Origin: Heterodontus francisci
Taxonomy: Eukaryota
Assembly: GCF_036365525.1 (NCBI RefSeq)
Contig: NC_090409.1
Location: 38,636,437 to 38,700,436 of the forward strand
Length of the DNA: 64,000 nucleotides
Direction: 5' to 3'
Of the stretch, positions 11,535 through 54,751 are shown one piece after another. The position numbers and the translations under genes were made by a program. Each line of letters begins with the position of its first letter. Within the stretch, counting starts at the first letter, position 1. The notes beneath the pieces are model-generated. The model saw only the letters and a list, made by a program, of their open reading frames with translations. It did not search any database and was not told the DNA's origin.

Positions 11535-12560
11535 TCGGGGGTTCAAGTCCCAGGGACTTGAGGACAAACTCCAAGCTGACACTCCCAGTTCCTGTACTGA
11601 GGGAGTGCGGCACAGTTGGAAGGTCAGTATTGAGGGAGTGCTGCACTGTCAGAGGGTCAGTACTGAGGGAGTGCTGCACTGTCGGAGGGTCAGTACTGAG
11701 GGAGTGCGGCACAGTTGGAAGGTCAGTATTGAGGGAGTGCTGCACTGTCAGAGGGTCAGTACTGAGGGAGTGCTGCACTGTCGGAGGGTCAGTACTGAGG
11801 GAGTGCCGCACTGTCGGAGGGTCGGTACTGAGGGAGTGCCGCACTGTCGGAGGGTCAGTACTGAGGGAGCGCCGCACTGTCAGAGGGTCAGTACTGAGGG
11901 AGTGCCGCACTGTCGAAGGTGCCGTCTTTCAGATGAGACATTAAACCGTGGCCCCCGTCTACCCTCTCAGGTGGGTGTAAAAGATCCCACGGCCACTATT
12001 TGGAAGAAGAGCGGGGGGGGCGTGGGGGGGAGTTCTTCCCGGTATCCCGGGGACAAAATTTATCCCTCAACCAACATCACAAAAAAAAAATGATCTAGGT
12101 CATTATCTCATTGCTGCTTGTGGGATCTTGCTGTGCGCAAACTGGCTGAAGTTCTTCCCCACATTAGCACAGCGACCTAAAGGTCCTGCTACCCGACCCG
12201 AACCCGACAGGACCTGACGACACGTGTCGGCACTTCCAGATCTGGCAGTTGGACTCGGGTTGGACCGGACACGCTCTGTCACAGATAAGTGAATTCAATG
12301 TCAATTTAATGTTTGAACTGGAAAGGTGGTTTCATTACCGTTATGTTAAGCTTGTGCAGATCAGCAACAATGTGAAAAATGGGAGGTAGGTCAACCGATG
12401 GGCGGGTCGCCCGCGGTTCTGTTGGGCTCAGGTCGGGCATTTTGTTTGCCGACCCGAACCGTCCTTTCAAGCGACTACACTTTCGAAAGGTACTTAATTG
12501 ACTGGAAAGTGCTTTAGGGTATCTGGGGGCTGTGACAGGTGCTATATAAATCCAGGTTCT
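11535..12560 (+). mobile_element. Deu-domain SINE (SacSINE1/AmnSINE-like) carrying ~10 internal 33-bp tandem units (11594-11920)
   Basis: GGTTCAAGTCC B-box; units CAGTACTGAGGGAGTGCTGCACTGTCGGAGGGT; body GGTGCCGTCTTTCAGATGAGACATTAAACCG; tail GCTATATAAAT. Confidence 0.8.
12178..12470. mobile_element. Putative non-autonomous DNA transposon (MITE, hAT-like) inserted in the SINE tail
   Basis: ACCCGA/TCGGGT subterminal repeats; AGCGAC duplicated on both sides, splitting the SINE motif ACAGCGACTACAC; relatives at 29248 and 29891. Confidence 0.5.
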
Positions 12561-22310: not shown

Positions 22311-22532
22311 CAGAAACTCAGGAGTTAAATCAAACCCAGTGCCATAAGATAAACAGTCTACTCTGCACAGGCAGTGAGGTTCCTACGTGTGTTGAGGGGC
22401 AGTCTAACCCAATGTGGTATGGTCAAGAAATACAAACTATCACTGAGTGTGTTATTAAATCAACAACCTCCCTCACAGAGACTGCATGGAGCAGGTGGTT
22501 ATTTATACAATGAAAACTTTAGCACCAATGAG

Positions 22533-23600
22533 ACAGTGTAGAGGGAGCTTTACTCTGTATCTAACCCCATGCAGTACCTGTCCTGGGAGTGTTTGATGGG
22601 GACAGTGTAGAGGGAGCTTTACTCTGTATCTAACCCTGTACTGTACCTGTCCTGGGAGTGTTTGATGGGGACAGTGTCGAGGGAGCTTTACTCTGTATCT
22701 AACCCCCGTACTGTACCTGTCCTGGGAGTGTTTGATGGGGACAGTGTAGAGGGAGCTTTACTCTGTATCTAACCCCCGTACTGTACCTGTCCTGGGAGTG
22801 TTTGATGGGGACAGTGTAGAGGGAGCTTTACTCTGTATCTAACCCCATGCAGTACCTGTCCTGGGACTGTTTGATGGGGGACAGTGTAGAGGGAGCTTTA
22901 CTCTGTATCTAACCCCCGTACTGTACCTGTCCTGGGAGTGTTTGATGTGGACAGTGTAGAGGGAGCTTTACTCTGTATCTAACCCCCGTACTGTACCTGT
23001 CCTGGGAGTGTTTGATGGGGACAGTGTAGAGGGAGCTTTACTCTGTATCTAACCCCCGTACTGTACCTGTCCTGGGAGTGTTTGATGTGGACAGTGTAGA
23101 GGGAGCTTTACTCTGTATCTAACCCCGTACTGTACCTGTCCTGGGAGTGTTTGATGGGGACAGTGTAGAGGGAGCTTTACTCTGTATCTAACCCCATGCA
23201 GTACTTGTCCTGGGAGTGTTTGATGGGGACAGTGTAGAGGGAGCTTTACTCTGTATCTAACACCCCCGTACTGTACCTGTCCTGGGAGTGTTTGATGGGG
23301 ACAGTGTAGAGGGAGCTTTACTCTGTATCTAACCCCCGTACTGTACCTGTCCTGGGAGTGTTTGATGTGGACAGTGTAGAGGGAGCTTTACTCTGTATCT
23401 AACCCCGTACTGTACCTGTCCTGGGAGTGTTTGATGGGGACAGTGTAGAGGGAGCTTTACTCTGTATCTAACCCCCATGCAGTACCTGTCCTGGGAGTGT
23501 TTGATGGGGACAGTGTAGAGGGAGCTTTACTCTGTATCTAACCCCCCGTGCTGTACCTGTCCTGGGAGTGTTTGATGGGGACAGTGTAGAGGGAGCTTTA
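22533..23600. repeat. 69-70-bp minisatellite (~15 units); partial units also at 24995-25036, 28260-28325 and 47199-47349
   Basis: Unit GACAGTGTAGAGGGAGCTTTACTCTGTATCTAACCCCCGTACTGTACCTGTCCTGGGAGTGTTTGATGGG. Confidence 0.95.
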
Positions 23601-24994
23601 GTGCCCACAACCTCTGGAACCGACTGAGCGGTGTCTGTTGGATGTGTGGGGGGAGCGGGAGGATGTGCAGCGGCGCCACCCTGGGCTGCCAAGGTGGAGT
23701 TGGCAGCCGGGAGGTTGGGGCAGTTCTTACGAACGTGCCCCACCCCCTTGAAAGCATGGCACCGCACCCCGACCGAGGTCCAGATGATGTGGTAGGCTGC
23801 CCCTTGGATCTCCACACTGAAGTGGCCCTCCAAGACCTCCTCCCGCACCAGCTGCATGAATAGCTGGCGGGGGAAGGATGTTTTCCCGAAGACCGAGCGG
23901 GACTGGGGTGATCCCAGACCTCACCTCCCCCAGATGGTGCAGGTGGGGGAGGAGGAGCTCACTGGGAATGAAGGGCGGGACGTTTGATAACATGATCCGC
24001 TGCACAGTGGCCCCCAGAGTGTCCACCAGCAGGAAGGTTCCCCCCACCCACAGTGAGTCCCTTACTCAGGGCCAGGGACACCGTCCTCTCGGTCTTCAGG
24101 AAGAACACACCCTCCCCGTACATCTTTGAAGCTGCAACAATGGCCGAGGGGCCGACAACATCGGCCATTGTCTTTACGCAGGCCTCAATAGACATGTTGG
24201 GGTGGGGATAGCTCTTCACCCCATGGCTGGATGTTATTAATTTAAAGGGTACTGGGACCACATGGGCAGCCACAGAGGCTGCAGCTGCATAGGTAGTAGA
24301 GGGCCCCGCCACCGGTGATGAAGGGCTTGCCATGGGTCTCAGAGCTAAACCCAACCCAAATTGTAGGCTTGCAAATTGAACAAAATGAAAGATTCACAGG
24401 AGATACTGAAGTTAAAAACAAACAACAGGTTGGGGAGAGACTAGGGGTATAGAAGAGAGGGAAAGACAAGCTGTAAGGGATGACTTGCTCTCAGGAGATG
24501 GTGCACTTAAAACAGTCTTTGCCAGCACTCTTAGTCTTCCGGTCTTCTGGTTGGGGCAGGCATCTTCACCTGGGTCAGCTGAATCTGCCCAAGCACTATC
24601 TATCCCCTTCCGTCTCGTTAGCCGGGCAGCTTCAGTTAACCCAGGCTGGGCAGTTGGAGTGGGGAGTGAGCTTCCCTGTGTGCTTGTTACAGCATCAGAG
24701 ATCCCTACAGAATTGGCAGCCCCACTCCTTGTTCCTCCCCCGATAGTCCAAAGCAAAGCAAACTACTGGTGTTCAGCACCCACCTCCAAACAAAGCCTCG
24801 TTTCCAACAAACATTTCGTTCTTCACTGTAAAGGTGATTGCTGGATCAAACTTTTCTCTGCTTGGTTGTAACTGCTCTCCCTCTGCTCGGTGTAGCTCCT
24901 CTCTCCCCCTCTGCAACCTCCAATTGCCACCAGCACTGTCAGCTGAGACTCGTTTCTGCAATCAGCGGTCAGCACCTCCAACCAGGCAGCAGCC
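23601..24994 (-). mobile_element. Tx1-clade LINE, 5' UTR plus N-terminal ORF1 only (3'-deleted)
   Basis: ORF pieces 23959-24354, 23727-24047 and 23468-23857 align with ORF1 of the 47350-53840 element (LSNVPPFIP, knuckle CHAFKGVGHVRKNC). Confidence 0.9.
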
Positions 24995-25039
24995 AACTCC
25001 GTGCTGTACCTGTCCTGGGAGAGTTTGATGGGACAGCAA

Positions 25040-26780
25040 GTATCTTCTTTCTTTGGCCTCCTTATCTCGAGAGACAATGGGTAAGCGACTGGAGGTGGTC
25101 AGTGGTTTGTGAAGCAACGCCTGGAGTGGCTATAAAGGCCAATTCTAGAGTGACAGACTCTTCCACAGGAGCTGCAGATAAATTTGTTTGTCGGGGCTGT
25201 TACACAGTTGGCTCTCCCCTTGCGCTTCTGTCTTTTTTCCTACCAACTACTAAGTCTCTTCGACTCGCCACACTTTAGCCCCGCCTTTATGACTGCCCGC
25301 CAGCTCTGGCGAACGCTGGCAACTGACTCCCACGACTTGTGATCAATGTCACAGGACTTCATGTCGCGTTTGCAGACGTCTTTAAAGCGGAGACATGGAC
25401 GGCCAGTGGGTCTGATACCAGTGACGAGCTCGCTGTACAATGTGTCTTTGGGGATCCTGCCATCTTCCATGCGGCTCACATGGTCAAGCCATCTCAAGTG
25501 CCGCTGACTCAGTAGTGTGTATATGCTGGGGATGTTGGCCGCCTCGAGGACTTCTGTGTTGGAGATACGGTCGTGCCACCTGATGCCAAGGATTCTCCGG
25601 AGGCAGCGAAGATCGAATGAGTTGAGACGTCGCTCTTGGCTGACATACGTTGTCCAGGCCTCGCTGCCGTAGAGCAAGGTACTGAGGACACAGGCCTGAT
25701 ACACTCAGACTTTTGTGTTCCGTGTCAGTGCGCCATTTTCCCACACTCTCTTGGCCAGTCTGGACATAGCAGTGGAAGCCTTTTCCATGAGCTTGTTGAT
25801 TTCTGCATCGAGAGACAGGTTACTGGTGATAGTTGAGCCGAGGTAGGTGAACTCTTGAACCACTTCCAGAGCGTGGTCGCCGATATTGATGGATGGAGCA
25901 TTTCTGACGTCCTGCCCCATGATGTTCGTTTTCTTGAGGCTGATAGTTAGGCCAAATTTGTTGCAGACAGCCGCAATCCTGTCGATGAGACTCTGCAGAC
26001 ACTCTTCAGTGTGAGATGTTAATGCAGCATCATCAGCAAAGCGGAGTTTCCTGATGAGGACCTTCCGTACTTTGGTCTTCGCTCTTAGACGGGCAAGGTT
26101 GAACAACCTGCCCCCTGATCTTGTATGGAGGAAAATTCCTTCTTCTGAAGACTTGAACGCATGTGAGAGCAGCAGGGAGAAGAAGATCCCAAACAGTGTG
26201 GGTGCGAGAACACAGCCCTGTTTCACACCACTCAGGATAGGAAAGGGGTCTGCTGAGGCGCCGCTATGCTGAATTGTGCCTTTCATATTGTCATGGAATG
26301 AGGTGATGATACTTAGTAGCTTTGGCGGACATCCGATCTTTTCTAGTAGTCTGAAGAGACCACGTCTGCTGACGAGGTCAACAGCTTTGGTGAGATCAAT
26401 GAAAGCAACGTAGAGGGGCATCTGTTGTTCACGGTATTTCTCTGGCGGAGGGAGAACAGCATGTCAATGGTGGATCTCTTTGCTCGAAAGCCACACTGTG
26501 CCTCAGGGTAGACGCGCTCAGCCAGCTTCTGGAGCCTGTTTAAAGCGACTCGAACGAAGACTTTCCCCTCTATGCTGAGCAGGGAGATTCCACGGTAGTT
26601 GTTGCAGTCACCGCGGTCACCCTTGTTCTTATAGAGGGTGATGATATTGGCATCGCGCATGTCCTGTGGTACTGCTCCCTCATCCCAGCACAGGCAAAGC
26701 AGTTCATGGAGTGCTGAGAGTATAACAGGCTTGGCACTCTTGATTATTTCAGGAGTAACGGCGTCCTTTCCAGGGGCTTT
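25040..26780 (-). mobile_element. RTE LINE, 3' half (RT domain and 3' end)
   Basis: NYRGISLL, FIDLTKA, GVKQGCVLAP and FADD motifs; (AAG)-type tail near 25045. Confidence 0.92.
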
Positions 26781-27324
26781 CCAGGGACAGCAAGTATAGG
26801 ACATGAAAAAGTCTCCAGTCTGACCTTGACTAGTATAAACTTTACAGATTAATCTGTTTTGTCGACTATAAGAACTTTGAAAGGAACTGTTAAGAAAAGA
26901 GAGATCCGCTGAATAAGAATAATACAATAAATACTCTTCTTGTCTCAAAAAAAGTTTCCACACATTATTATTAAAGGGCAACTTCTGCAAACAGGATATT
27001 TTTGACACAGAGAAAAATCACCTGCAATTATCCCTTTAAAAAAAGTTCCTTGATGGGGTTTCCCCCACTGTGGCGAGGAGTAAATAACAGACTAGTTCAA
27101 AGGACAACTCCCCAGCTGTGGTAAACTAGCTGCCCTTAGCCTCTCAGGATTGAGGTCTGAATAAGGTCCTCAGCACCAGTAGGGAGTTTGGTGGTGGTAG
27201 GGAAGGGGAGAGCTGGGTACTGGAGTTAATCACCCAGGGCTCCCCTTCTCCTGTGGCCCCAATGACACATGCACAGGATCGTGCTTGGCCGTGACGCTCC
27301 CAAGGTCGAGCAGCCTGTTAATTA

Positions 27325-28222
27325 CAGCCGTGGTTCAGTTGGGAAATGCTCTTTCACCTCTAAGCCAGAAGCTCGGGGAGCGCACTCCGGAGACTTGACT
27401 GCAGCATTCAGGCTGATGCCCCCAGTACAGTACTGAGGGAGTGCCGCACTGTCGGAGGGATGGTACTGAGGGAGGGCCGCACTGTCGGAGGGTCAGTACT
27501 GAGGGAGTGCTGCACTGTCGGAGGGTCGGTACTGAGGGAGTGCTGCACTGTCGGAGGGTCAGTACTGAGGGAGTGCGCACTGTCGGAGGGTCAGTACTGA
27601 GGGAGTGCCGCACTGTCGGAGGGATGGTACTGAGGGAGGGCCGCACTGTCGGAGGGTCAGTACTGAGGGAGTGCTGCACTGTCGGAGGGTCGGTACTGAG
27701 GGAGTGCTGCACTGTCGGAGGGTCGGTACTGAGGGAGTGCCGCACTGTCGGAGGGTCAGTACTGAGGGAGTGCCGCACTGTCGGAGGGTCAGTGCTGAGG
27801 GAGTGCTGCACTGTCAGAGGGTCAGTACTGAGGGAGTGCGCACTGTCGGAGGGTCAGTACTGAGGGAGTGCCGCACTGTCGGAGGGTCAGTATTGAGGGA
27901 GTGCCGCACGATCAGAGGGTCAGTACTGAGGGAGTGCGCACTGTCGGAGGGTCAGTACTGAGGGAGTGCCGCACTGTCAGAGGGTCAGTACTGAGGGAGT
28001 GCGCACTGTCGGAGGGTCAGTACTGAGGGAGTGCCGCACTGTCGGAGGGTCAGTACTGAGGGAGTGCGCACTGACGGAGGGTCAGTACTGAGGGAGTGCG
28101 CACTGTCGGAGGGTCAGTACTGAGGGAGTGCCGCACTGTCGGAGGGTCAGTATTGAGGGAGTGCCGCACTGTCGGAGGGTCAGTACTGAGGTCGTGCCGC
28201 ACTGTCGGAGGGTCAGTACTGT
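27325..28222 (+). mobile_element. Deu-type SINE head plus ~24 copies of the 33-bp unit (body missing)
   Basis: A-box-like GTGGTTCAGTTGG, then array 27428-28220. Confidence 0.8.
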
Positions 28223-28377
28223 GGCAGAGTGTAGAAGGTTATTTACTCTTTACCTGAGCAGTATAGAGGGAGCTTTACTTTGTATTTAACCCCTGCTGTA
28301 GCTGCCCTGGGAGTGTTTGATGGGGGAATTTTTTCTGTTGTGTTGGGATGTGGCTAACACAGAAGATGGCATAAATC

Positions 28378-36339: not shown

Positions 36340-36745
36340 GAAAACAGTCTCTGGGTTTCCCATGGATCCAGCCCCTCAGTTCAGCTTGGTGGGGGGACCT
36401 TACACTGTGGTCTTTCCCCATTGAGCCTTTGCTGCGGCTGCCCCAAGCTTTAGTGCGTCCCTCAGCGCGTAGTCCTGGACCTTGCAATGTGCCAGCCTGC
36501 AACATTCGGTGGTGGACAACTCTTTGCGCTGGAAGACCAGCAAGTTTCGGGCAGACCAAAGGGCGTCTTTCACCGAATTGATGGTCCTCCAGCAGCAGTT
36601 GATGTTTGTCTCGGTGTGCGTCCCTGGGAGCAGCCCGTGGAGCACAGACCCCTGTGTTACAGAGCTGCTCGGGATGAGCCTCGACAAAAACCACTGCATC
36701 TCTTTCCACACCTGCTTTGCGAAGACACATTCCAGGAAGATATCT
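36340..36745 (-). mobile_element. Tx1/L1-type ORF2 C-terminal fragment (different family)
   Basis: ORF 36400-36711 WKEMQWFLSRLIP...KDALWSARNLLVF resembles the region after zf-RVT. Confidence 0.7.
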
Positions 36746-36792
36746 GTACCGTCATTTTATTTTGAGTTTAATTGATTCCTCTTGCCTTGCAG

Positions 36793-37125
36793 TCTCTGAA
36801 TTAAAGGTCACTGGGACCCACAGGGGTGAAATCATCCTGCCATGCAGCAGTAAAGACAGATCTATCACAAGGGCTTACTGGCAGAAACAGACAAGCTCGG
36901 AACCACATGTGTTGAAAGCATTTTGCAAAACTCCACATAATGACTGCGAAAGGATCAGTCCTGCTTACATCAATCGATCAACCTTCACTGGCAATTTACA
37001 GCAGGGAAATTACTCTCTCAAACTCCGTGACCTCACACTCGCAGATGAAGGACATTACTACTGCGTGCTGCAAGGGGAGACGCAATGGATCGACACTGGC
37101 TGTAACATTGAGGTGAAAGTCGTAG
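36793..37125 (+). CDS. B7-family (ICOS-ligand-like) gene, IgV exon
   Basis: TTGCAG| acceptor and G|GTAAG donor, phase 1/1; V-set motifs ILPC, YWQ, YINR, GNYSLKL, DEGHYYC, EVKV. Confidence 0.93.
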
Positions 37126-37174
37126 GTAAGAGAGATTTAAGCCGTGGCTCTTTTTCCTCTAACTGGGGCTGAAA

Positions 37175-37600
37175 GGGTTAAGTTGCCAGGACAGGTTGCA
37201 CAGACTGGGCTTTGTATTCCCCTTGAGTGAAGAAGATTAAGGGGGTGATCGAATTGAGGGGGTCGATAGGGAGAAACCATTTCCTCTGTCGGGGGGAGAG
37301 TCCAGAACAAGGGGGTAGAACCTAAAAATTGGAACCAGCCCATTCAGGGGGTGATGCCAGGAAGCATTTCTTCACACAAAGGGCAGTGGGAATCTGCAAC
37401 TCCCTCCCCCCCCCCCCCCGAGAAAGCTTTCGAGGCCGGAGGGTGAATTGGAAATTTCCAAACTGAGACTGACGGATTTTTGTTGGGTGAGGGGATGAAG
37501 TTTACAGAACCAAGGTGGGGAGATGCCTCCTCTTGTCCCATGGGTCAAGACAGAACAGGGTCGAAGGGCTGAATGGCCCTCCTCCTATTCCTATATACCT
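37175..37600 (+). mobile_element. CR1 3' fragment (intronic)
   Basis: GAAGATTAAGGGGGTGATC and GGGCTGAATGGCC 3' motifs. Confidence 0.75.
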
Positions 37601-37862
37601 TTGTTTCCCCCCCCCACCCCCAGTGAAAGGAGCGAGTGTGCGGCTGCCAAGCGAGGGGGAAGCGCTGGGTGCGACGCCTCGCGCGGTCGAATAGCCCACC
37701 GCCAGCCGGCACTGAGGTGACTTAAAGCCAGGTGCGGGGAAGCTGCCAGAGCTGGGGGAGGACGCCAAACCAGAAGCGGAAGGGGGAGAGGAGGTGATGG
37801 GGGATGCTTTTTACCGGCAGGTCTGACACATGTTAACAGCTCGACTTTCTTTGAATCGGAAG

Positions 37863-38156
37863 CTCTGTACAGTGAACCGAAAATCATCATATCGAGGGAG
37901 GATCTTCGGCTGCACGAAGAGGTCAATCTCACCTGCTCCAGCAGCAGTGGCGACCCAAAGGCAAAAGTACGATGGATCAATCAAACTGACAAAAGTGACT
38001 TTGCAGAAGAGCAAGTGATGACAACACTTGGAAGTGGGGAGCACGGAATATACAATATAACCAGCGTCCTGAGGACCAAAGTCAGTCAGGACTTTATCAT
38101 TTGTCAAATCTTCAACGACATTACAGAAGCAAACAAGACATCGAAACCATTCAACT
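37863..38156 (+). CDS. B7-family (ICOS-ligand-like) gene, IgC exon (alternative in-frame start at 37821)
   Basis: ALYSEPKI..EVNLTCSSSSGDPKAKVRWINQTDKS..GIYNITSVLR..IICQIFN; WINQTDKS parallels recalled ICOSL WINKTDNS; donor T|GTAAGC, phase 1. Confidence 0.9.
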
Positions 38157-38242
38157 GTAAGCATTGGTTGGTTGTCAAATTTGCCTGCAGTTTAATTGAA
38201 CACATTAATCGCAGCAATGTACTGCAGCCCATCAGGGGCATC

Positions 38243-41240
38243 TCTCTGTGGCTCAGTGGGTATGACTGTCTCAGAGTCAAAGGATCATGGCTTTAAGGCC
38301 TATTCCAGAGATTTGAGCCTAAAATCTAGGCCAACTTTTCACAGTGCCGGTACTGAGGGAGTGCCGCACTGTCGGAGGGTCAGTACTGAGGGAGTGCTGC
38401 ATTGTCGGAGGGTCAGTACTGAGGGAGTGCCGCACTGTCAGAGGGTCAGTACTGAGGGAGTGCCGCACTGTCGGAGGGTCAGTACTGAGGGAGTGCTGCA
38501 TTGTCGGAGGGTCAGTACTGAGGGAGCGCCGCACTGTTGGAGGGTCAGCACTGAGGGAGTGCCGCAGTGTCAGAGGGTCAGTACTGAGGTCATGTCACAC
38601 TGTCGGAGGGTCAGTACTGAGGGAGTGCCGCACTGTCAGAGGGTCAGTACTGAGGTCATGTCGCACTGTCGGAGGGTCAGTACTGAGGGAGTGCCGCACT
38701 GTCGGAGGGTCAGTACTGAGGGAGTGCCGCACTGTCGAAGGGTCAGTACTGAGGGAGTGCCGTACTGTCGGAGGGTCAGTACTGAGGGAGTGCCGCACTG
38801 TCAGAGGGTCAGTACTGAGGTCATGTCGCACTGTCGGAGGGTCAGTACTGAGGGAGTGCCGCACTGTCGGAGGGTCAGCACTGAGGGAGTGCCGCAGTGT
38901 CAGAAGATCAGTACTGAGGGAGTGCTGCATTGTCGGAGGGTCAGTACTGAGGGAGCGCCGCACTGTTGGAGGGTCAGCACTGAGGGAGTGCCGCAGTGTC
39001 AGAGGGTCAGTACTGAGGTCATGTCACACTGTCGGAGGGTCAGTACTGAGGGAGTGCCGCACTGTCAGAGGGTCAGTACTGAGGTCATGTCGCACTGTCG
39101 GAGGGTCAGTACTGAGGGAGTGCCGCACTGTCGGAGGGTCAGTACTGAGGGAGTGCCGCACTGTCGAAGGGTCAGTACTGAGGGAGTGCCGTACTGTCGG
39201 AGGGTCAGTACTGAGGGAGTGCCGCACTGTCAGAGGGTCAGTACTGAGGTCATGTCGCACTGTCGGAGGGTCAGTACTGAGGGAGTGCCGCACTGTCGGA
39301 GGGTCAGCACTGAGGGAGTGCCGCAGTGTCAGAAGATCAGTACTGAGGGAGTGCCGCACTGTCGGAGGGTCAGTACTGAGGGAGTGCTGCACTGTCAGGG
39401 GGTCAGTACTGAGGGAGTGCCGTACTGTCGGAGGGTCAGTACTGAGGTCGTGCCGCACTGTCGGAGGGTCAGTACTGAGGGAGTGCCGCACTGTCGTAGG
39501 GTCAGGACTGAGGGAGTGCTGCACTGTCGGAGGGTCAGTACTGAGGGAGTGCTGCACTGTCGGAGGGTCAGGACTGAGGGAGTGCTGCACTGTCGGAGGG
39601 TCAGTACTGAGGTCGTGCCGCACTGTCGGAGGGTCAGTACTGAGGAAGTGCCGCACTGTCGGAGGGTCAGTACTGAGGGAGTGCTGCATTGTCGGAGGGT
39701 CAGTACTGAGGGAGTGCTGCACTGTCGGAGGGTCAGTACTGAGGGAGTGCTGCACTGTCGGAGGGTCAGTACTGAGGTCGTGCCGCACTGTCGGAGGGTC
39801 AGTACTGAGGAAGTGCCGCACTGTCGGAGGGTCAGTACTGAGGGAGTGCTGCATTGTCGGAGGGTCAGTACTGAGGTAGTGTCGCACTGTAGGAGGGTCA
39901 GTACTGAGCGAGTGCCGCACTGTTGTAGGGTCAGTTTTTCAAAAATCATTTCTGGGATGTGGGCGTCGCTGGCCAGGCCAGCATTTATTGCCCATCCCTA
40001 ATTGCCCTTGAGAAGGTGGTGGTGAGCTGCCTTCTTGAACCGCTGCAGTCCATGTGGGGTAGGTACACCCACAGTGCTGTTAGGAAGGGAGTTCCAGGAT
40101 TTTGACCCAGCGACAGTGAAGGAACGGCGATACAGTTCCAAGTCAGGATGGTGTGTGACTTGGAGGGGAACTTGCAGGTGGTGGTGTTCCCATGCATCTG
40201 CTGCCCTTGTCCTTCTAGTTGGTAGAGGTCGCGGGTTTGGAAGGTGCTGTCTAAGGAGTCTTGGTGCATTGCTGCAGTGCATCTTGTAGATGGTACACAC
40301 TGCTGTCACTGTACGTCGGTGGTGGAGGGAGTGAATGTTTGTAGATGGGGTGCCAATCAAGTGGGCTGCTTTGTCCTGGATGGTGTTGAGCTTCTTGAGT
40401 GTTGTTGGAGCTGCACCCATCCAGGCAAGTGGAGAGTATTCCATCACACTCCTGACTTGTGCCTTGTAGATGGTGGACAGGCTTTGGGGTGTCGGGAGCT
40501 GGATCAAAATCCTGGAACTCCCTTCCTAACAGCACTGTGTGTGTACCTACCCCACATGGACTGCAGCGGTTCAAGAAGGCAGCTCACCACCACCTTCTCA
40601 AGGGCAATTAGGGATGGGCAATAAATGCTGGTCTGGCCAGTGACGCCCACATCCCAGAAATGAATTTTGAAAAGTTCCTCTAGTTTTAAAACATAGAATC
40701 AGAGAATGATCCAGCACAGGAGTAGGACATTCGGCCCATCATCCCTGTGCTGGCTCTTCGATAGATCTATCCAATTAGTCCCCACTCTCCCCCCTGCTCT
40801 TTCCCCCATCTCCCTGCAAATCTTCCCCCTTCCAGTATGTCAGAGGGTCAGTACTGAGGGAGTGCTGCACTGTCGGAGGGTCAGTCCTGAGGGAGTGCTG
40901 CACTGTCGGAGGTGCCGTCTTTCAGATGAGACATTAAACCGAGGCCCCCGTCTGCCCTCTCTGGTGGGTGTAAAAGATCCCACGGCCACTATTTGGAGGA
41001 AGAGCGGAGGGGGGGAGTTCTCCCCGGTGTCCTGGGGACAATATTTATCCCTCAACCAACATCACTAAAAAAAACAGAAGATCTGGGTCATTATCACATT
41101 GCTGTTTGTGGGATCTTGCGGTGCACAAATTGGCTGCCGCATTTCCTGCATTACAACAGTGATGACACTTCAAAAAAAAGGACCTTATTGTCTGTGAGGC
41201 TCTTTGGGACGTCCTGAGGAGGCGAAAGGCGCTGGAGAAA
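38243..41240 (+). mobile_element. Deu-domain SINE with ~48 internal 33-bp units (38349-39935), interrupted by LINE pieces; body resumes at 40840
   Basis: A-box TGGCTCAGTGG at 38249, then the array; Deu body 40910-41235. Confidence 0.85.
39936..40675. mobile_element. LINE 3' fragment (-) plus an inverted copy of its last ~175 bp (+)
   Basis: 39936-40110 is near the reverse complement of 40498-40675. Confidence 0.88.
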
Positions 41241-42215: not shown

Positions 42216-42392
42216 CAATGCAGGCTGTTGTTGATCGGATCGATATTGGTGCTTCTGAACTCAGAGGAGAGGGAGAAATCCCCAAAACCAGATAAGGTGT
42301 TAATTGACTGTGAAGCACAGACACTGCAAGCACTAACATAAAAAAACACATAAAAAAAAGTGGGTAAGCACATTGGAAAGAAACTAAACAAA

Positions 42393-43520
42393 CTCACCGC
42401 TTCCCCTCCCTCCCAGAACCGTGACAGGGTTCCCCTTGTCCTCACTTTCCACCCCATCAGCCTCCATATCCAAAGGATCATCCTTCGCCATTTCCACCAC
42501 CTCCAGCGTGATGCCACTTCCAAACGCATCTTCCCCTCCCTTCCCCTGTCAGCATTCCGAAGGGATCGTTCCCTCCGCGACACCCTGGTCCACTCCTCCA
42601 TTACCCCCACCACCTCGTCCCCGTCCCATGGCACCTTACCCTGCAATTGCAGGAGGTGTAATACCTGCCCATTTACCTCCTCTCTCCTCACTATCCCAGG
42701 CCCCAAACACTCCTTTCAGGTGAAGCAGCGATTTACTTGTACTTCTTTCAATGTAGTATACTGTATTCGCTGCTCACAATGTGGTCTCCTCTACACTGGG
42801 GAGACCAAGCGCAGACTGGGTGACCGCTTTGCGGAACACCTCCGCTCAGTCCTAAAGCATGACCCTGAGCTTCCGGTCGTTGGCCATTTCAACACTCCCC
42901 CCCTGCTCTCATGCTCACACCTCTGTCCTGGGATTGCTGCAGTGTTCCAGTGAACATCAACGCAAGCTCGAGGAACAGCATCTCATTTACCGATTCGGCA
43001 CACTACAGCCTGCCGGACTGAACATTGAGTTCAATCATTTCAGAGCATGCTGGGACCCCCATTATATGCTTTGTTATTTTTTTATTTTTCCTTTCTTATT
43101 TGATTATTTTATTTTAGGTTTTTCAGTTTGTTTAGTTTGTTTGCACTGTGCTTACCCACTGTTTTGGTTTTATTAATGTGGTTTTTTATGGGTGTGCTTG
43201 GAGTACTCGGTACTTTACAGTCAATTCACACCCTCTCTGCACTAACACTTTGTCTTTCACCACACTATTAACATATTGTTTTCCTTTGTTCCATGACCTT
43301 CTGGTCGGTTATTCTCTGTGACCTTGTCCTAGCTACACCTTCTCCTTTGTTATCTCTTGCCCCACCCCCACTCTACTTGCTTAAAACCTTTGACATTTCT
43401 AATATTTGCCAGTTCTGAAGAAGGGTCACTGACCCGAAACGTTAACTCTGCTTCTCTCTCCGCAGATGCTGCCAGACCTGCTGAGTGTTTCCAGCATCTG
43501 CAGCATTTTGCTTTTATTTT
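42393..43520 (+). mobile_element. Penelope-like element 3' part (GIY-YIG endonuclease plus terminal region)
   Basis: NVVYCIRCSQCGLLYTGETKRRLGDRFAEH; CNCRRCNTC linker; GLNIE end. Confidence 0.9.
43411..43447 (+). ncRNA. Minimal hammerhead ribozyme motif (Penelope-associated)
   Basis: AGTT-CTGAAGA-A-GGGTC-ACT-GACCC-GAAA-CG-TT-AACT: stem I AGTT/AACT, stem II GGGTC/GACCC, palindromic ACGT in place of stem III. Confidence 0.75.
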
Positions 43521-44579: not shown

Positions 44580-45292
44580 TCGTTACTGTTGTAATGCAGG
44601 AAACGCAACAGTCAATTTGCGCACAGCAAGATCCCACAAACAGCGATGTTGATAATGACCCAGATCATCTGGTTTTTTTTTAGCGATGTTGTTTGAGGGA
44701 TAAATATTGTCCCCAGGACACCGGGGAGAACTCCCCACCCCCCCCGCCCCCCACCACTGCTCTTCTTCCAAATAGTGGCCGTGGGATCTTTTACACCCAC
44801 CTGAGAGGGCAGACAGGGGCCTCGGTTTAATGTCTCATCTGAAAGACGGTACCTCCGACAGTGCAGCACTCCCTCAGTACTGACCCTCTTACAGTGCGGC
44901 ACTCCCTCAGTACTGACCCTCTTACAGTGCAGCACTCCCTCAGTACTGACCCTCCAACAGCGCGGCACTCCCTCAGTACTGACCCTCCGACAGTGCAGCA
45001 CTCCCTCAGTACTGACCCTCCGACAGTGCAGCACTCCCTCAGTACTGACCCTCCAACAGTGCAGCACTCCCTCAGTACTGACCCTCCAACAGTGCAGCAC
45101 TCCCTCAGTACTGACCCTCCGACAGTGCAGCACTCCCTCAGTACTGACCCTCCGACAGTGCAGCACTCCCTTAGTACTGGCACTCAGAGTGCCAGCCTGA
45201 ATTTTGTGCTCAAGTCTCTCGAGTGGGGACTCGGGCCCCGAAACCTCCTCTCTCAGAGGCGACAGTGCTCGACCCGCTGAGCCACGGCTGAC
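44580..45292 (-). mobile_element. Deu-domain SINE with ~10 internal 33-bp units
   Basis: Minus-strand head GCCGTGGCTCAGCGGG at ~45290; array 44853-45178; Deu body 44580-44850. Confidence 0.87.
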
Positions 45293-46945: not shown

Positions 46946-47198
46946 GTGTCTAACACATTCTGGGGAGCAATTATTCAGAGCAAACGCAACAATTACTCTT
47001 GGATCCCGAACATACGCAAGCCTGAAATGCAGACAATCCCAGGCAACCCAAATGCTGTTCCCTCTTCTAATCCTCACATTCGGAATTTCTTGATCCAAGA
47101 AAACTGAACCCATTCTCTGGGCTGTTGCCTCAATCCTAAATCAGAACAGGAGCACCTGTTCACAACGTGAGATGTTGGAGAATTCAGCATTACAGCTC

Positions 47199-47349
47199 CA
47201 GCACGGAGTTGGATACAGAGTAAAACTCCCTCTACACTGTCCCCATCAAACACTCCCAGGACACGTACAGTACGGGGGTTAGATACAGAGTAAAACTCCC
47301 TCTACACTGTCACATCAAACACTCCCATGGCAGGTACAGCACTGGGATT
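47199..47349 (-). repeat. Two units of the 70-bp minisatellite abutting the Tx1 5' end
   Basis: GATACAGAGTAAAACTCCCTCTACACTGTCCCCATCAAACACTCCCAGG... Confidence 0.9.
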
Positions 47350-47977
47350 GGCTGCTCTCTGATTTGGGAGCCTGAGTGCATCAACGAGGTGCAGCTGACT
47401 GTTGCTGTGTGTACAGGTTGGAGGCTGCAGGCTGTGTGACTGCTGCAAGAGGGAGAGACTGAGACTGAAAGAAGGGTTTTTCCACATTTTCAACAAAGGA
47501 AGGAAGGCAGAGAACTGGAAGCTCTTTTGTGAGTTTGCTTGGTACTGAAAGTCTTTTTCATTGATTGTTGGGGGTGGGGAAAGAAGAGACCTGAAGACCT
47601 TGGGTGGGGCTGTATTGTTCAATAGGGAGCTCCTGTGTTTAACATCTTTGGATAGGGAGCTCCCTCCCCACCCCAACTATTAAGCCTGGGACAGCTGGAG
47701 CTGCCCAGGTGAAGAGACTTATTATCTGAACATTGAAGGAGGCGTGTGCCTGGGCAGCTTACAGCTGACCCAGGTGAAGACATCACCCCACTCTCCCAAC
47801 TGGAAGACCAGCTACAAGACTTGTGCAATACTAACAAAGACTGATTCCTCTTGGCCTTCCTCTCCCTCAGCCTCTTTCCCCTGTGCTACATCCTTTAAGT
47901 GTTACATTTTTGATTTATTGTATTTGCTCTTTTCTTTTTTTTTGCTCTCAACAAAGTGCCTGTAACTCTTCTACCCC

Positions 47978-49989
47978 ATGACTTCTCAGTCCTCTCCGGT
48001 GGCGGGGCCCTCCTCTGCTGCAGCAGCTGCGACAGCTGCTCCTGTGGCCCCGTCACCATTTAAAATCTTAACATCAAAGCATGGGGTGAAGAGTTACACC
48101 CATCCTAATATGACTATTGAGGCTTGTGTTAAGGCAATGGCCGTGGTTGTCGGCCCCTCGGCCATTGTTGCAGCCTCAAAGATGGATGGGAAGGCTGTGT
48201 TCTTCCTGAAGACCGAGCGGGCTGTGTCCCTCGCCCTAAGTACGGGGCTCACAGTGGGTGGGATTTTCCTGCCAGTGGACCCTCTGGGGGCCACTGCACA
48301 TCGGGTAATCTTGTCGAACGTCCCACCCTTCATTCCTGATGAGCTCCTCCTCCCCCACCAACACCTTCTGGGGGAGGTGAGGTCAGGGATCACCCCAGTC
48401 CCGCTCGGTCTTCGGGAGCACAGCCTCCGACATGTCTACTCCTTCTGTCGCCAGCTATTCATGCAGCTGGCGCAGGAGGGGGTCTTGGAGGGCCACTTCG
48501 GTATAGAGTTTCAGGGGACGGCCTACCGCGACTTCTGGACCTCGGATGGAGCGCGGTGCCACGTCTGCAAGGGGGTGGGGCATGTTCGTAAGAATTGCCC
48601 CAACCTCCCGGCCGCCAGCTCCACCTCGGCGGCCCAGAATGGTTCCACAGCACCTCCTCCCACTCCCCAACACATCCAATAAACACCGCTCAGTCGGTTC
48701 CGGAGGCTGTGGTTTTCACAGCCTCCAGCGGGGAGGGGAGCGTCTGTCCGAGCGGAAGGAAGACGCGGGGAAAAAAGAAACATCATGAGGCGCGTCCCCT
48801 GGACACTTTGACTCAACCCAAGCCTGAGCTCAGCCCAAAGCCCATTCCCATGGAATCCACCTGTCCCAGGGCTGGGCTCAGGCCCAGGGGGACTAAAAAG
48901 GAAAAAAAGGGTGCGGAGGCTTCTGATGACATGGAGGTCTCTGAGTCTCCGCGCCCAAGTGCGAAAAAGAGGAGAAGGCACCCCTCCACAGAAATAACAC
49001 AGGGCCCTGAGGTGCAGGGCCCATCTGTTGGAGGGGAGCTGCCTCCTGTTTCTGGTCCTCAGGTACCCCCTACCGCCACCACCAAGGCTACAAAGTCCGG
49101 GCAGGTGCTCCCTATTCCTCAGGATGGAGGGGAGGGGATGGCCCCGGTACATGAGGCCCCTCCTGAAGGAGTAAGTGGGGCCCTGCTTGTGGTGGGGGAG
49201 CCTGGGGAAGCCGCCCATTCTGCCACTGCTACTGGGTCGGGTGTCCTGAATGAAGGGGAGGGCGAGGACCCAGAGGGTCGGGCCTCCCAGCCGGAGTCCA
49301 CCACCAACCAGGAGACACCCGACCCAGTTATAACTGAGAATGCTGCCCCATCTGCTGGGCCTGTGGGTGCTGGCGGAGCGGGAGATAGCCTCCTCCCTCC
49401 GCCTCCAGTCTCGGCTGCGGCTGGTTTCCCGGAGTCGGGAACTTCTGTCTCCCCTGGACCACTCATTGCCCTGGGGACGGAGGTGGAGGGGGGTCCTGAA
49501 CCGCTGGTGCCTACAGGCTCCAGTTTCACAATAGAACCCAGAGATCCTGGGGGTGGGATCGTGACGGAGGCGGGACCAGCTGGCGCGGCCGGGACGTCCG
49601 CCCCACAGTGTGTGGTGGATGTGTCGGCCGCTGGCGGTGACGACCCGGAGGAGGATGGGGATTCGGTGCGGGGCACGGAGGATGATCTTGATTCCATCGC
49701 CAGTGAGGTGGTGGAGTCCCTCGTGCCTCCCACCGAATCTCCTCTCATCCCCACGGCGGAACTCCAGGATTTCCTCGCGGCTTGCAGAGGTTGCCGCAAT
49801 AAAGTTCAGCTGGCCCTCGACCGTTGGTCAAATCTGGCGCTGATCATACAGTCCGTCCGTGCCGCCCTTAAGATAGCGGGCAAGCGCGCGGACGTGAAAC
49901 TGGTTGAGAGGTGCCGTTTTAATGTGTTCCTCAATGGGTTGCTGGGGGAGTGGAGGGCCAGGTGCACTTCCACTCCCTCCTCAGAGTGA
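47978..49989 (+). pseudogene. Tx1 ORF1 (gag-like, CCHC knuckle), one frameshift near 48665
   Basis: ORFs 47978-48682 and 48595-49989; CHVCKGVGHVRKNC; Pro/Glu/Gly-rich C-terminal half. Confidence 0.88.
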
Positions 49990-50021
49990 GGTGTTTGTGA
50001 CGGGTTTTAATTACCTTTGAC

Positions 50022-53000
50022 ATGAAGATAACCATAGCCAGCCTCAACATCAACGGCAACAGAGGGGCTCACCGCAGATTTCACAAGCTCTCAGTCCTTA
50101 GGGAAGGGAGATACGCGGTGAGCTTTCTGCAGGAAACCCACACCGTTCCGGGAGACGAAGCCACCTGGCTCCTGGAGTGGCAGGGTGGGGTCTACATGAG
50201 TCACCTCACCCCTATTTCTAGTGGGGTGGCTATCTTGTTGGTCCCGACCTTTCAGCCGGAGATCTTGGGGGTCAAGGAGCTAGTGCCGGGCCGCTTGCTC
50301 CACCTCGCCGTTCGCCTGGGTAGCGTGCCGCTCCACTTTGTGAACGTGTACGCGCCCAGGCCCGGCGCGTTGCAAGCGCGCTTCTTTGAAGAAGTGTCCG
50401 CTCTCTTGAGCTCCATCGATAGCGGCGAGTGCATCATCCTCGGGGGGGATTTTAACTGCACCCTCGAGGTGGGGGATCGCTCCGGTCCCCAGCGCAGCCA
50501 AGCGTCGGTGGAGAAGTTGAGGGGACTGATCAGCTCCCTGAACTTGGTGGACGTCTGGCGGAATCTCCATCCCGACTCCAGCGCCTTCACGTGGAGGTCT
50601 GGAGGAGGGGGGTTGCGAATCGACCGCCTCTACATTTCGCAGGCGTACGTCTCCCGCGTTTCGGCAGCCTCCATGCGGCTGGTGCCGTGCTCGGACCACC
50701 GCCTGGTGTGGGCGGAGTTTACTCCGCTCCGCACGCGGGCGGGGTCCGCGTACTGGCACTTTAACAACCGGCTGCTGGAGGACGTGCGATTTCGGGACTC
50801 GTTCTGTCGATTCTGGGCCGACTGGAGAAGGAAGCAGGGGGGCTTCCCCTCCTTGAGGCCATGGTGGGATGTGGGCAAGACTCACATCCGCGTCTTCTGT
50901 CAGGAGTACGCGAAGGGGTCGGCCAAGAGGCGGGAAGCCGAGATCGGGCGCCTTGAGAGGGATGTGCTCGACTTGGAATCCCGCCTCGGTCATGCCGTCG
51001 TGGACCCGGCTCTGTGGCAGGCGTACAAAGAGAAGAAGGGCGCGCTGAGGGACCTGCAGCTCATAGGGTCCCGAGGCGCGTACGTGAGGTCGCGGATCCA
51101 GATCCTGGAAGATTTGGACCGTGCCTCACCCTTCTTCTACTCACTGGAAAAATGGCGGGGGGTCCGTAAGCAGCTCATCGAGCTGCTGGCCAACGACGGA
51201 TCCTCCATCACGGATCCGGAGGGAATGGGCCTCCTGGTCCGGACTTATTTCAGTGCGTTGTTCTCTCCGGATCCGTCCAGCGAGGATGCGCGCAGAGTTT
51301 TGTGGGAGGACCTGCCGCAGGTCAGCCCGGAGGGCGCCGAAGGATTGGAGGCTCCGCTCACGTTGGCGGAGCTGACTGGCGCCCTCCACCAGCTCTCGAG
51401 GGGCAAATCCCCAGGGCTGGATGGGTTGACTGTGGAGTTCCTCAGGGCGTTCTGGGACGTCCTGGGGGACGATTACGCGCGGGTCCTGGGGGAAAGCCTG
51501 GCGACCGGGGAGATGCCCCTCTCGTGGCGCAGGGCGGTCATCGTCCTGCTGCCGGAGAGGGGCGATCTCCGCCTGCTTAAAAACTGGCGTCCGGTCTCCC
51601 TCCTCAGCACGGATTATAAGATCTTTGCCCGGGCTATGTCGACCCGCCTGTGCTCTGTGCTGGCCCACATGATCCACCCCGACCAGTCCTACGCGGTCCC
51701 GGGCCGGTCCATCCAGGACAACATCCACCTGGTCCGGGACCTGATCCATCTTTCCCAGAGGACTGGTCAGTCGATCGCCTTTCTCTCCCTCGATCAGGAG
51801 AAGGCGTTCGACAGGGTGGATCACGATTACCTTTTCGAGACTCTGCGCGCTTTCGGACTCGGGCCGCATTTTGTGGCCCGGGTTCGACTTTTATATGCCG
51901 CCGCAGAGTGTCTAGTCAATGTTAACGGGTCCTTGACGGCGCCCCTTCGATTTGGGAGAGGAGTGCGTCAGGGGTGCCCCATGTCCGGCCAATTGTATAC
52001 CATCTGCGTGGAGCCCTTCCTGTGCCTGCTCCGCAGGGGGTTGACGGGATTGGCTCTGCGCGAGCCGGCCATGCGGGTCGTCCTCTCGGCTTACGCCGAC
52101 GACGTGCTCCTCGCAATCACAGATCCCGTTGACTTGCGGAGGATGCGCGACTGCCAGCAGACCTTTTCTGCCGCGTCCTCCGCGAGGATCAATTGGGAGA
52201 ATTGTTCCGGACTCCTGGTTGGTCAGTGGCGGGTGGACTCCCTGCCGGAGGAGATGACACCTTTTGCGTGGAGCACCACGCACCTCCTCTATCTGGGAGT
52301 CCACCTTAGCCCCGCTGAGGAAGCCTGGCCGGCAAACTGGCAGGAGTTGGAGGCGAAAGTCACCGCTCGGCTGGGGCGCTGGACAGGACTGCTCCGAGTG
52401 CTTTCCAACAGGGGCCGAGCGTTGGTCATAAACCAACTGGTGGCCTCCATGCTGTGGTACCGGTTGGTCACTTTGGACCCGCCCCCTGTATTTGCCACCA
52501 AGATCCAGAAGAAACTCGTCGATTTCTTCTGGGGCAAGAGGAAACACTGGGTCTCTGCCGCGGTCCTGAGTCTCCCGATCGAGGAGAGCGGTCAGTCGCT
52601 GGTGTGCGTCCGCACCCAAGCTGCGACTCTCCTCCTTCGGACCCTGCAGAGATACCTGTACGTCGAGCGTCCTCCCAGATGGTGTGCGCTGGCGACGTAT
52701 TTTTTCCGCCAGTGTCACTGCCTTCAAGCTCCCGGTGGAGTCCGTTAGCCACGCCTCTCTGAGGGAGTTGCCTGTTTTTTACCGGGATCTATTCCGAGTC
52801 TGGAACATGGTCGCCTCCAGTCAGGGCGCTCCCCCGCCGGCGGAGGTGAGCGCCTCGGCTGTCCGGGCGGCCGACTCCGGGGACGGTCCGGCGGGCGGAG
52901 GAGTAGCCGAAACCCCCGGGACGCCCCTCACTGCGGGTGGCGAGGGGGCTCGGGAGTGCTGAGCGATCCCAGCGGAGCTGACCCCCGCTCAGCCGGAACT

Positions 53001-53750
53001 GATCATCGGACCCAGGCCCCGAAACCCTCCTCGGGAGCCGGTCCCGCACAACTCGAACTGCCTCTCGGAAATGCCCTCCGTGCCATTCCAATCGGCGCGG
53101 AGGGGTTTCCTGTACGGGCTGCTCCTGCACACTCTCCACTTCCTCACCTCGGCAGCCAGCCGGACACGCCCTGGCGGTCCGCGTTGCCATCTGGCGGCGA
53201 GGGGAAACCCCGATGGAGGTCTCTCTACGCGGGAGTCTTCCCCCTTTACATTGGGGACCTGGGGTGGAGGGTGCTGCACAGAGCAGTCCCGTGCAATAGG
53301 CTTTTAAGTAGGTTCACGGACTCCCAGGCCAGCTGTACTTTCTGCGGCCTGGACGAGTCCGTGTTCCACGTTTATACGGAGTGTGCGAGGTTGCAGCCCC
53401 TCTTTGAGTATCTGAAGGGGCTGCTCCTCAAATTCTGGCTGCACTTCAGTCCCACGCTCCTGATCTTTGGGCACCCGGTTGCGGAGGGGCTTGGGCCGGG
53501 AGGAGGATCTCCTCGTCGGTCTGCTCCTGGGCCTGGCCAAGGTGGCAATTCACAGGTCCAGGCTGCGGGCCGTCGGGGGGGTCCGTCCTCCCCGTTTGCC
53601 TGCCCCTCTTCCGCGGTTACTTTCACGCCCGGGTGTCCCTGGAGAAGGAGCATGCGGTGTCCGCCAGTACGCTTGAGGCCTTCCGCGACCGGTGGGCACC
53701 GCAGGGACTGGAGTGCATCGTCGACGCCGAGAATGGCATTTTAATTTGAG
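50022..53750 (+). pseudogene. Tx1 ORF2 (APE endonuclease, RT, zf-RVT); open for 908 aa, disrupted after ~52720
   Basis: SLNING, LQETH, GGDFN, RIDR, SDH; KNWRPVSLL, DQEKAFD, GVRQGCP, YADD; CTFCGLDESVFHVYTEC. Confidence 0.93.
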
Positions 53751-54164
53751 TTTTTTGTTTATTTATCTGGTTTTAATAAAGTTATTTTAAAACTGTAAAT
53801 ATGTACATAAAGGGGGCCTGAGGAATAAGGCCCAGGACAGGATAGGTGGAGAATATTTTGCACTGATATTAAAGGGCTGTTTTCCTGTCGGTTAAACACA
53901 GACCCATTACCAGCCTCAGATCTGTGACAGTGGAACTGAAACCAATGCTGTTCAGGTGACAGAATGACGTCGGAATTGCAACTTCTGGTGGCTTGGAATG
54001 GACAGGAAGTGGAACTGTCGGTCACGGGTGTCGGTAGAAAAGGAAGATCTTCTCTTTTCCAGACCCGCTGTGTCGCTTGTATTCTTTGATCAAAGCTGTA
54101 CTCCGAAAACCAGGAGACAAAGTGTGATCGAGGCTGAACAGTGAACAGAGCAGTGAAGCATTTC

Positions 54165-54746
54165 ACTAGCGCCTTTGGATGTCCCAAAGTGCCTCACGGC
54201 CAACGAAATTCTTTTTTAGAAGTGTGGTGACTGTAATATCGGAAACACGGCAGTCAATTTTTACACAGCAAGATCCCGCAACCAGCTGTGTGATAATGAC
54301 CCAGATCGTCTGTTTTTTTTTCCAGTGATGTTGGTTGAGGGATAAATATTGTCCCCAGGACACCGGGGAGAACTCCCCCGCCCCGCTCTTCTTCCAAATA
54401 GTGGCCGTGGGATCTTTTACACCCACCTGAGAGGGCAGACGGGGGCCTCGGTTTAATGTCTCATCTGAAAGGCGGCACCTCCGACAGTGCAGCACTCCCT
54501 CAGTACTGAGCGTCTGACAGTGCAGCACTCCCTCAGTACTGACCCCCCTCCGACAGTGCGGCACTCCCTCAGTACTGAGCGTCTGACAGTGCAGCACTCC
54601 CTCAGTACTGACCCCCCTCCGACAGTGCAGCACTCCCTCAGTACTGACCCTCCGACAGTGCAGCACTCCCTCAGTACTGACCCTCTGACAGTGCGGCACT
54701 CCCTCAGTACTGACCCTCTGACAGTGCGGCACTCCCTCAGTACTGA
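54165..54746 (-). mobile_element. Deu-domain SINE body with ~8 33-bp units; head displaced by the adjacent LINE
   Basis: Array 54480-54746; body 54165-54480; head remnant near 55725-55795. Confidence 0.83.
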
Positions 54747-54751
54747 CAGTC

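Follow-up and report, generated by a model that had tools for sequence, protein, structure and literature searches.

The closest described relative of the element family reported here is Tx1L of Xenopus laevis (YTX2, P0021), which likewise has two open reading frames (ORFs) and encodes an APE endonuclease and a reverse transcriptase (RT). Tx1L targets another repeated DNA, Tx1D (PMC1950540, PMC4494074). Tx1-Mar and Tx1-9_AMi are also vertebrate Tx1 elements that prefer a non-genic repeat (PMC4494074, Kojima 2015); the families in that paper also show tandem insertions around a duplication and were judged by the same truncated-copy test that is applied below. Keno, Dewa, Kibi and Koshi likewise belong to the Tx1 clade and insert at a fixed base of a multicopy sequence. 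Dewa was reportedly described by Kojima and Fujiwara in 2004 as targeting tRNA gene clusters. Keno targets U2 genes, and Kibi and Koshi target TC or TTC microsatellites (PMC4494074). The Tx1 preferences in print thus comprise RNA genes, microsatellites, DNA transposons, LTR elements and satellites (PMC4494074). The main text of that paper names Mariner, Harbinger, LTR elements and microsatellites and does not contain the word "shark"; satellites appear among the known targets in the legend of its Fig. 3 ("Sat, satellites"), and its supplements may name satellite-targeting families.

R1Bm, R7Ag, SART1 and R2 belong to other clades, and their targets (rDNA, telomeric repeats) are maintained by the host. 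Reverse transcription by R1Bm is accurate only when downstream target sequence is present, and 3' transduction has been seen for R1Bm and R7Ag in assays and is known for L1 (PMC7265360). R2 is co-transcribed with its own target (PMC7265360, PMC4494074).

Here, we followed up two Tx1 copies in a window of 64,000 nt from the shark Heterodontus francisci (contig NC_090409.1) and scanned 6.0 Gb of genome for their relatives. We have little doubt that this family inserts at one base of a 69–70 bp minisatellite, which is dispersed and lies mostly at chromosome ends. It is likely that targeting and seeding go together, i.e., that a recently active Tx1-clade LINE prefers one minisatellite site and also spreads that site. 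Our literature search, which covered sources other than Repbase, Dfam and most subscription papers, found nothing on the family, the repeat or the seeding of target arrays in vivo.

The copies in the window and their family

The initial annotation described two Tx1 copies, A and B, in opposite orientations that begin in a common register of a 70-bp repeat, and both junctions it quoted are present (Table 1). It had set the boundaries at 47350 (B) and 24994 (A). These positions fall 9 nt (B) and 8 nt (A) past the start of the element, and the letters in between are its head: the true start is the A of CAGC/A, at 47341 in B and 25002 in A. The cut site within the unit is CAGC/ACGGGGTTAG, read CAGC/ACGGGG (the slash marks the cut). 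The 5' UTRs of the two copies had been called homologous yet diverged, and two 5' UTR blocks are indeed 68–75% identical. Over ORF1, the identity is ~80% for DNA and 76% for the protein (101 aa).

Table 1 Features of the window around the two Tx1 copies (position 1 is the first letter of the window)
Feature	Position	Strand	Remark
About 2 units of the 69–70 bp minisatellite upstream of copy B	47199–47340	+	Ends at cut site CAGC/
Element head of copy B, 15 nt	47341–47355	+	Resembles downstream half of target
5' UTR of copy B	47341–47977	+	One of several UTR types
ORF1 of copy B, CCHC zinc knuckle	47978–49989	+	Stop near 48680, indel near 48665
ORF2 of copy B: APE endonuclease, RT, putative C-terminal zinc-binding region	50022–53744	+	Open to 52748; indels near 52727, 53146, 53480 and 53576 break the frame
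3' UTR of copy B	53745–53833	+	Cut inside first terminal hairpin, no poly(A)
11-nt unit match after copy B	53831–53841	+	
Copy A: head, 5' UTR of another type, first part of ORF1	23601–25002	−	3' part lost
Remnant of one unit upstream of copy A	25003–25036	−	Ends at cut site
70-bp repeat array downstream of copy A, 15.3 units	22532–23600	−	Joined out of register
LINE fragment, presumably of RTE type, directly upstream of the unit remnant of copy A	25030–26797	−	RT domain shown
Lone, decayed unit of the 69–70 bp repeat	28259–28325	−	88% identity

Copy B is near full length and 96.8% identical to an intact copy, with both ORFs broken. It is without the remainder of the 3' hairpin region and without a poly(A) tail, and its relatives have both. 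The 11-nt unit match reported after it (CCCAGGACAGG) is present, with a rough chance estimate of 6e-5, and does not make a clean 3' junction; most simply, it is probably the leftover of a downstream array after a deletion. Copy A had been placed inside an array. The array itself is real, and the far-side join at 23601/23600 is not an insertion junction: copy A stops within ORF1, and its contact with the array is out of register, a state that a later deletion would produce. On its 5' side there is only ~34–43 bp of a single unit (25036–24995), and the adjacent LINE fragment is flanked by a 14-bp duplication of its own (26797–26784 and 25043–25030). As neither A nor B has a clean 3' junction, the proof of targeting must come from other copies; the window by itself proves a shared 5' register and nothing further.

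Other features of the window were recorded as well. Two immunoglobulin-superfamily exons, a V-set followed by a CD80-like C2-set, lie at 36678–38296 (+) between the two Tx1 copies and are read as a B7 or butyrophilin-like gene. A 33-bp minisatellite occurs five times (11594–11919, 27428–28221, 38350–39935, 44852–45179 and 54478–54747), apparently inside one SINE-like element, which we take to be SacSINE1/DeuSINE-like. Arrays of 37, 38, 39 and 35 bp are also present. A frame at 42354–42953 (+), presumably Penelope-like, has a weak GIY-YIG match (E 1e-3, below cut-off).

ORF2 of the family begins with the APE endonuclease, followed by the RT (Pfam Exo_endo_phos at 6–226, RVT_1 at 519–762). Its conserved motifs align with Tx1L, with 51.6% identity over 1,237 aligned residues (48.9% in the endonuclease). 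The C-terminus matches zf-RVT with E 2e-4 and 22.2 bits against a curated cut-off of 27.5, a broken frame having been used. Among the best 120 of 271 matches to ORF2 residues 1–500, the top one (91%) is labelled Heterodontus francisci, and the next are Xenopus Tx1L (49%) and turtle proteins (49–50%). ORF1 is separate, measures 676–699 aa from stop to stop in intact copies, shows the CCHC pattern CX2CX4HX4C in B and in intact copies and gave no Pfam match. Poly(A) tails, 5' truncation and target site duplications are all found in the family, even if copy B has lost its tail. Judged by these sequence features and by similarity, the family is assigned to the Tx1-clade non-LTR retrotransposons.

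An open ORF1 together with an open ORF2 is carried by 16 of 77 long loci, and 21 open ORF2 proteins are 97.4–100% identical. Hence, with near-identical open ORF2 proteins and intact copies in the genome, the family is young and recently active. Its 5' UTRs fall into seven types that are 62–83% alike, on ORF2 DNA that is 97–100% alike (typing of 15 of the 18 full-length loci, those that could be parsed, plus A and B). The preferred interpretation of copies A and B is that they represent UTR variants within a single lineage, A having no ORF2 for comparison. L146 and copy B share the first 34 nt of the 5' UTR with the L147 group and are 66% alike with it overall, at 99–100% identity in ORF2, a pattern of UTR swapping or of chimeras among stacked copies. 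The terminal hairpin of the 3' UTR is tandemly repeated in L121, L134 and others, up to six times in L134. Contigs from four runs (their type guessed), compared with an intact copy, covered the whole element and the unit in two organisms, with starts, strand and junctions unreadable.

Insertion register in the minisatellite

The target has a period of 69–70 bp, unlike the TC or TTC microsatellites of Kibi and Koshi. A U2 snRNA or tRNA target as in Keno or Dewa was not indicated, with no Rfam match at gathering level in 47100–48000. A ribozyme or structured RNA in the unit was rejected, as folding is no better than in shuffles (z −0.2 to −0.8) and no Rfam family matched; a short 5S-like insert in L108 had no Rfam support either. 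The targets of Tx1L and Tx1-Mar lie in a DNA transposon, whereas the shark target appears to stand free, as a tandem repeat whose flanks are unrelated. By eye, no shared flank was seen in 20 arrays picked by the unit, and the unit was accordingly rejected as the tail of a SINE or LINE.

Genome-wide, a run of seven A followed by the unit at the insertion register gave 1,837 exact matches (transduced junctions included), compared with 0 and 0 at two control positions of the unit. The other counts are also exact matches and thus lower bounds: at least 25,050 units, 1,328 element 3' ends and 425 heads of the B type, of which 291 directly follow the unit and 58 a poly(A) tail. Over all fetched loci, 768 A-rich runs were examined. 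Unit sequence follows 189 of them, and in 186 cases it resumes at unit positions 68–4, within a few bases of the cut. Inspection by eye of the 30 best 3'-end matches showed a tail and then the unit or the head of another copy, in one register, at 27 loci, the exceptions being B itself, L002 and L008. At the 30 best 5'-end matches, the element follows the unit in 27 cases and a tail in three. Twenty of these loci, chosen by hand and all with an upstream unit, were taken full length; 18 end in the unit and two in front of another head. The same locus-specific unit variant stands on both sides of the element at L127, L133 and L140, so these copies entered existing arrays.

The proposal that the family targets the minisatellite is upheld by this alignment of flanks: on either side, the repeat meets the element at one fixed base, a duplication is present, this holds for 5'-truncated copies too, and the copies are independent insertions on many contigs, with a preference for the base that is not strict. 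The 14 truncated on-target junctions found over all loci keep 0–14 bp of the unit before the element, and none keeps more than 14 bp within the 22-bp window examined. If the unit were no more than a 5' monomer or promoter of the element and there were no targeting, it should not stand on both sides of truncated copies with duplications, nor should the 3' junctions be in register, and none of 21 full-length copies is off target with a 5' unit. As the sole explanation, the 5' monomer is refuted by the truncated on-target copies, and we regard it as very improbable, notwithstanding the upstream alleles described below, which speak for it.

To quantify the preference, 79 of the first 100 exact 3'-end matches by position, all on contigs C1–C5, were classified. 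The other 21 were left out (20 all near contig ends, one adjoining another match), which probably lowered the on-target share. The classes were assigned by hand, and for 12 of the 79 copies they conflict with an automatic call of the first 3' junction. In this classification, 34 copies are on target (21 full-length and 13 truncated), nine are in register at the 3' end only, their 5' end being unseen or rearranged, and 36 are off target. In PMC4494074, a Tx1 family is called target-specific when one sequence type occurs in more than 20% of the flanks. Here, one type occurs in 34 of 79 flanks strictly and in 43 of 79 with the 3'-only cases, so the family is target-specific by this measure, though far from strict. 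As the flanks of 36 of the 79 copies are unrelated, we speak of a strong preference and not of a strict rule. Tx1L is described as stringent, whereas about half of the sampled shark copies lie off target.

The initial annotation had named a single insertion duplicated with its flanks as one case that would overturn it, and the independent truncated copies refute this. L042/L047 and L052/L057 do look like segmental or assembly duplicates, and each of the 43 sites that are on target or in register is no more than 25 Mb away from a contig end, compared with 4 of the 36 off-target sites, as would be seen if element and repeat merely co-occurred near chromosome ends. However, truncation points, tails, UTR types and outer flanks differ among the copies, and co-location cannot yield a single-base register. 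We give duplication or mere co-occurrence next to no credence. As the on-target sites all lie near contig ends, chromatin or survival in the germ line may add to the bias.

Off-target copies, the element head and new arrays

All 36 off-target copies are truncated (41–2,524 bp, median 272). Full-length copies are thus 21 on and none off target, compared with 13 on and 36 off among the truncated ones (Fisher p 2e-9). An automatic search found a duplication in 21 of the off-target copies, 14 bp long in 14 of these. The duplication starts with A in 20 of the 21 cases and is preceded by C in 19; hence, the cut is fixed at C/A. The surrounding bases echo the target, with C at −4 (11 of the 21), A at −3 (12 of the 21) and a purine at +4 (19 of the 21). 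Off-target sites have C/A in common with a weak CA-N-C context and nothing further. L114 (C1) and L180 (C3) are independent off-target insertions at nearly the same base of another dispersed repeat, which suggests a secondary hot spot. At L156, a tRNA-like sequence (Rfam 38 bits, 1869–1963, −) lies directly upstream of an off-target truncated copy.

These contexts would also fit an endonuclease that reads the address alone, as in Tx1L, with the likeness of the head to the target and the transductions being by-products without a role in targeting. We consider this quite possible, though not probable. The Tx1L endonuclease nicks almost only at its target (PMC1950540), and in the shark, 13 of the 49 resolved truncated copies are on target without having a head, where 3e-5 to 9e-5 would be expected (assumed CA frequency 0.07). 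The endonuclease alone does not explain why full-length copies are on target in 21 of 21 cases against 13 of 49 truncated ones, nor why the head is kept across 5' UTRs that are 62–83% alike. The specificity loop, which has been tied to site choice in the Tx1L endonuclease (PMC1950540), has 11 residues there and seven, mostly glycine, in the shark family, i.e., four fewer. Such a short, glycine-rich loop would fit a looser enzyme and proves nothing.

Full-length copies have no separate duplication; the unit passes straight into the head, AC(T/G)GGG(A/G)TTGGCT, which is kept across UTR types. The likeness of head and target is modest. Over 15 nt, 10 positions match the unit with five G, one antisense register matches equally well (10 of 15), and for the unit with four G another ungapped alignment scores better than the one at the register. 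The head itself serves as a target, as 58 of 425 heads have a tail in front, L104 and L187 show 14-bp duplications of head sequence, and new copies are stacked in front of the heads of older ones. At 11 of the 13 diagnostic positions that fall within 35 nt, the last unit before the head has the consensus and not the allele of its locus, compared with 4 of 34 in interior control units (seven informative loci of 14, positions not independent, no truncated-copy control); beyond −35, these seven loci gave no contrast. This hints, less strongly than in the case of 3' transduction, that the RNA carries upstream unit sequence at its 5' end. A similar pattern would result if the protein favoured consensus units.

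The initial annotation had offered, as an alternative to targeting, that the element carries the unit as a 5' monomer and thereby seeds the satellite. The element does seed it, mainly by 3' transduction and not as a 5' monomer, and the two models do not exclude each other: 18 of the 36 off-target copies carry transduced target sequence, and 18 do not. At L158, in the middle of a contig, a 14-bp duplication of unrelated DNA encloses a truncated copy of 921 bp followed by a tail, 4.3 units and another tail. L119 and L155 are built alike, with the array enclosed by the tail and a 14-bp duplication, and 4.3 units is the longest transduced array. At L074, the array measures 286 bp and bears a tail and a duplication, and an element body is absent. 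The unit contains AGTAAA, which can serve as a variant poly(A) signal. Tails after unit sequence start 8–26 nt past this AGTAAA in 49 of 108 cases (28% expected), and transcripts seem to be polyadenylated there. A further 24 of the 108 tails begin inside the first 15 nt, in keeping with insertions of a tail alone that made a short duplication.

It could be argued from the new arrays at L158, L119, L155, L074 and L071, and from the internal tails in many arrays (13 in L061), that the element made the dispersed minisatellite and that the arrays are accumulated transductions. We consider this unlikely. The 20 arrays picked by the unit show a tail and an outer duplication in three cases (L071, L074 and L073, the last being the L158 locus), so most arrays are not shown to be element-made; 17 are without these outer marks. 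The units also far exceed the exact 3' ends in number (see above), and a decayed unit without any element exists in the window. L061 (G000:C1, ~9.68 Mb) is an 897-bp cluster with partial units between its tails at a period of ~46 bp; the scar of an insertion has here given rise to a secondary tandem repeat.

Proposed mechanism and implications

The site, the register, the duplication length, the transduction and the stacking can be read directly in the genomic DNA. Target-primed reverse transcription by an APE endonuclease and RT is established for this class of elements. In the shark family, the APE domain would nick the bottom strand opposite C/A and the top strand about 14 nt downstream. 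The RNA would start with the target-like head, probably preceded by some upstream unit sequence, and a complete cDNA would pair through the head with the 14-nt overhang only at the target. Such pairing would explain why full-length copies are on target and have no separate duplication. Transcripts would often read through the tail into the unit and be polyadenylated after AGTAAA, giving rise to the transductions. The read-through RNA may also anneal to the primer strand, something that has been reported for R1Bm (PMC7265360).

Taken further, element and minisatellite could form a self-feeding pair, in which target homology at the two ends of the RNA guides a loosely specific endonuclease and read-through copies provide a major path for the dispersal and lengthening of the minisatellite. 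We put this forward tentatively, as a possibility that is rather improbable in full.

With these findings, the list of Tx1 targets gains a new entry, and the family concerned is young and has intact copies. They also provide genomic cases of a site-preferring retrotransposon that creates new arrays of its own target; unlike in R1Bm, R7Ag, SART1 and R2, the transduction in the shark demonstrably does so at new sites. With its stereotyped 14-bp stagger, its short specificity loop and its target-like head, the family lends itself to separating recognition by the endonuclease from RNA–DNA pairing in targeting. Chromosome ends and small chromosomes of sharks are rich in tandem repeats (PMC10620051, bioRxiv 2025.06.08.657570), and array seeding is one testable cause of this richness. 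If the self-feeding reading is true, much of the safe ground on which the element lands is of its own making.
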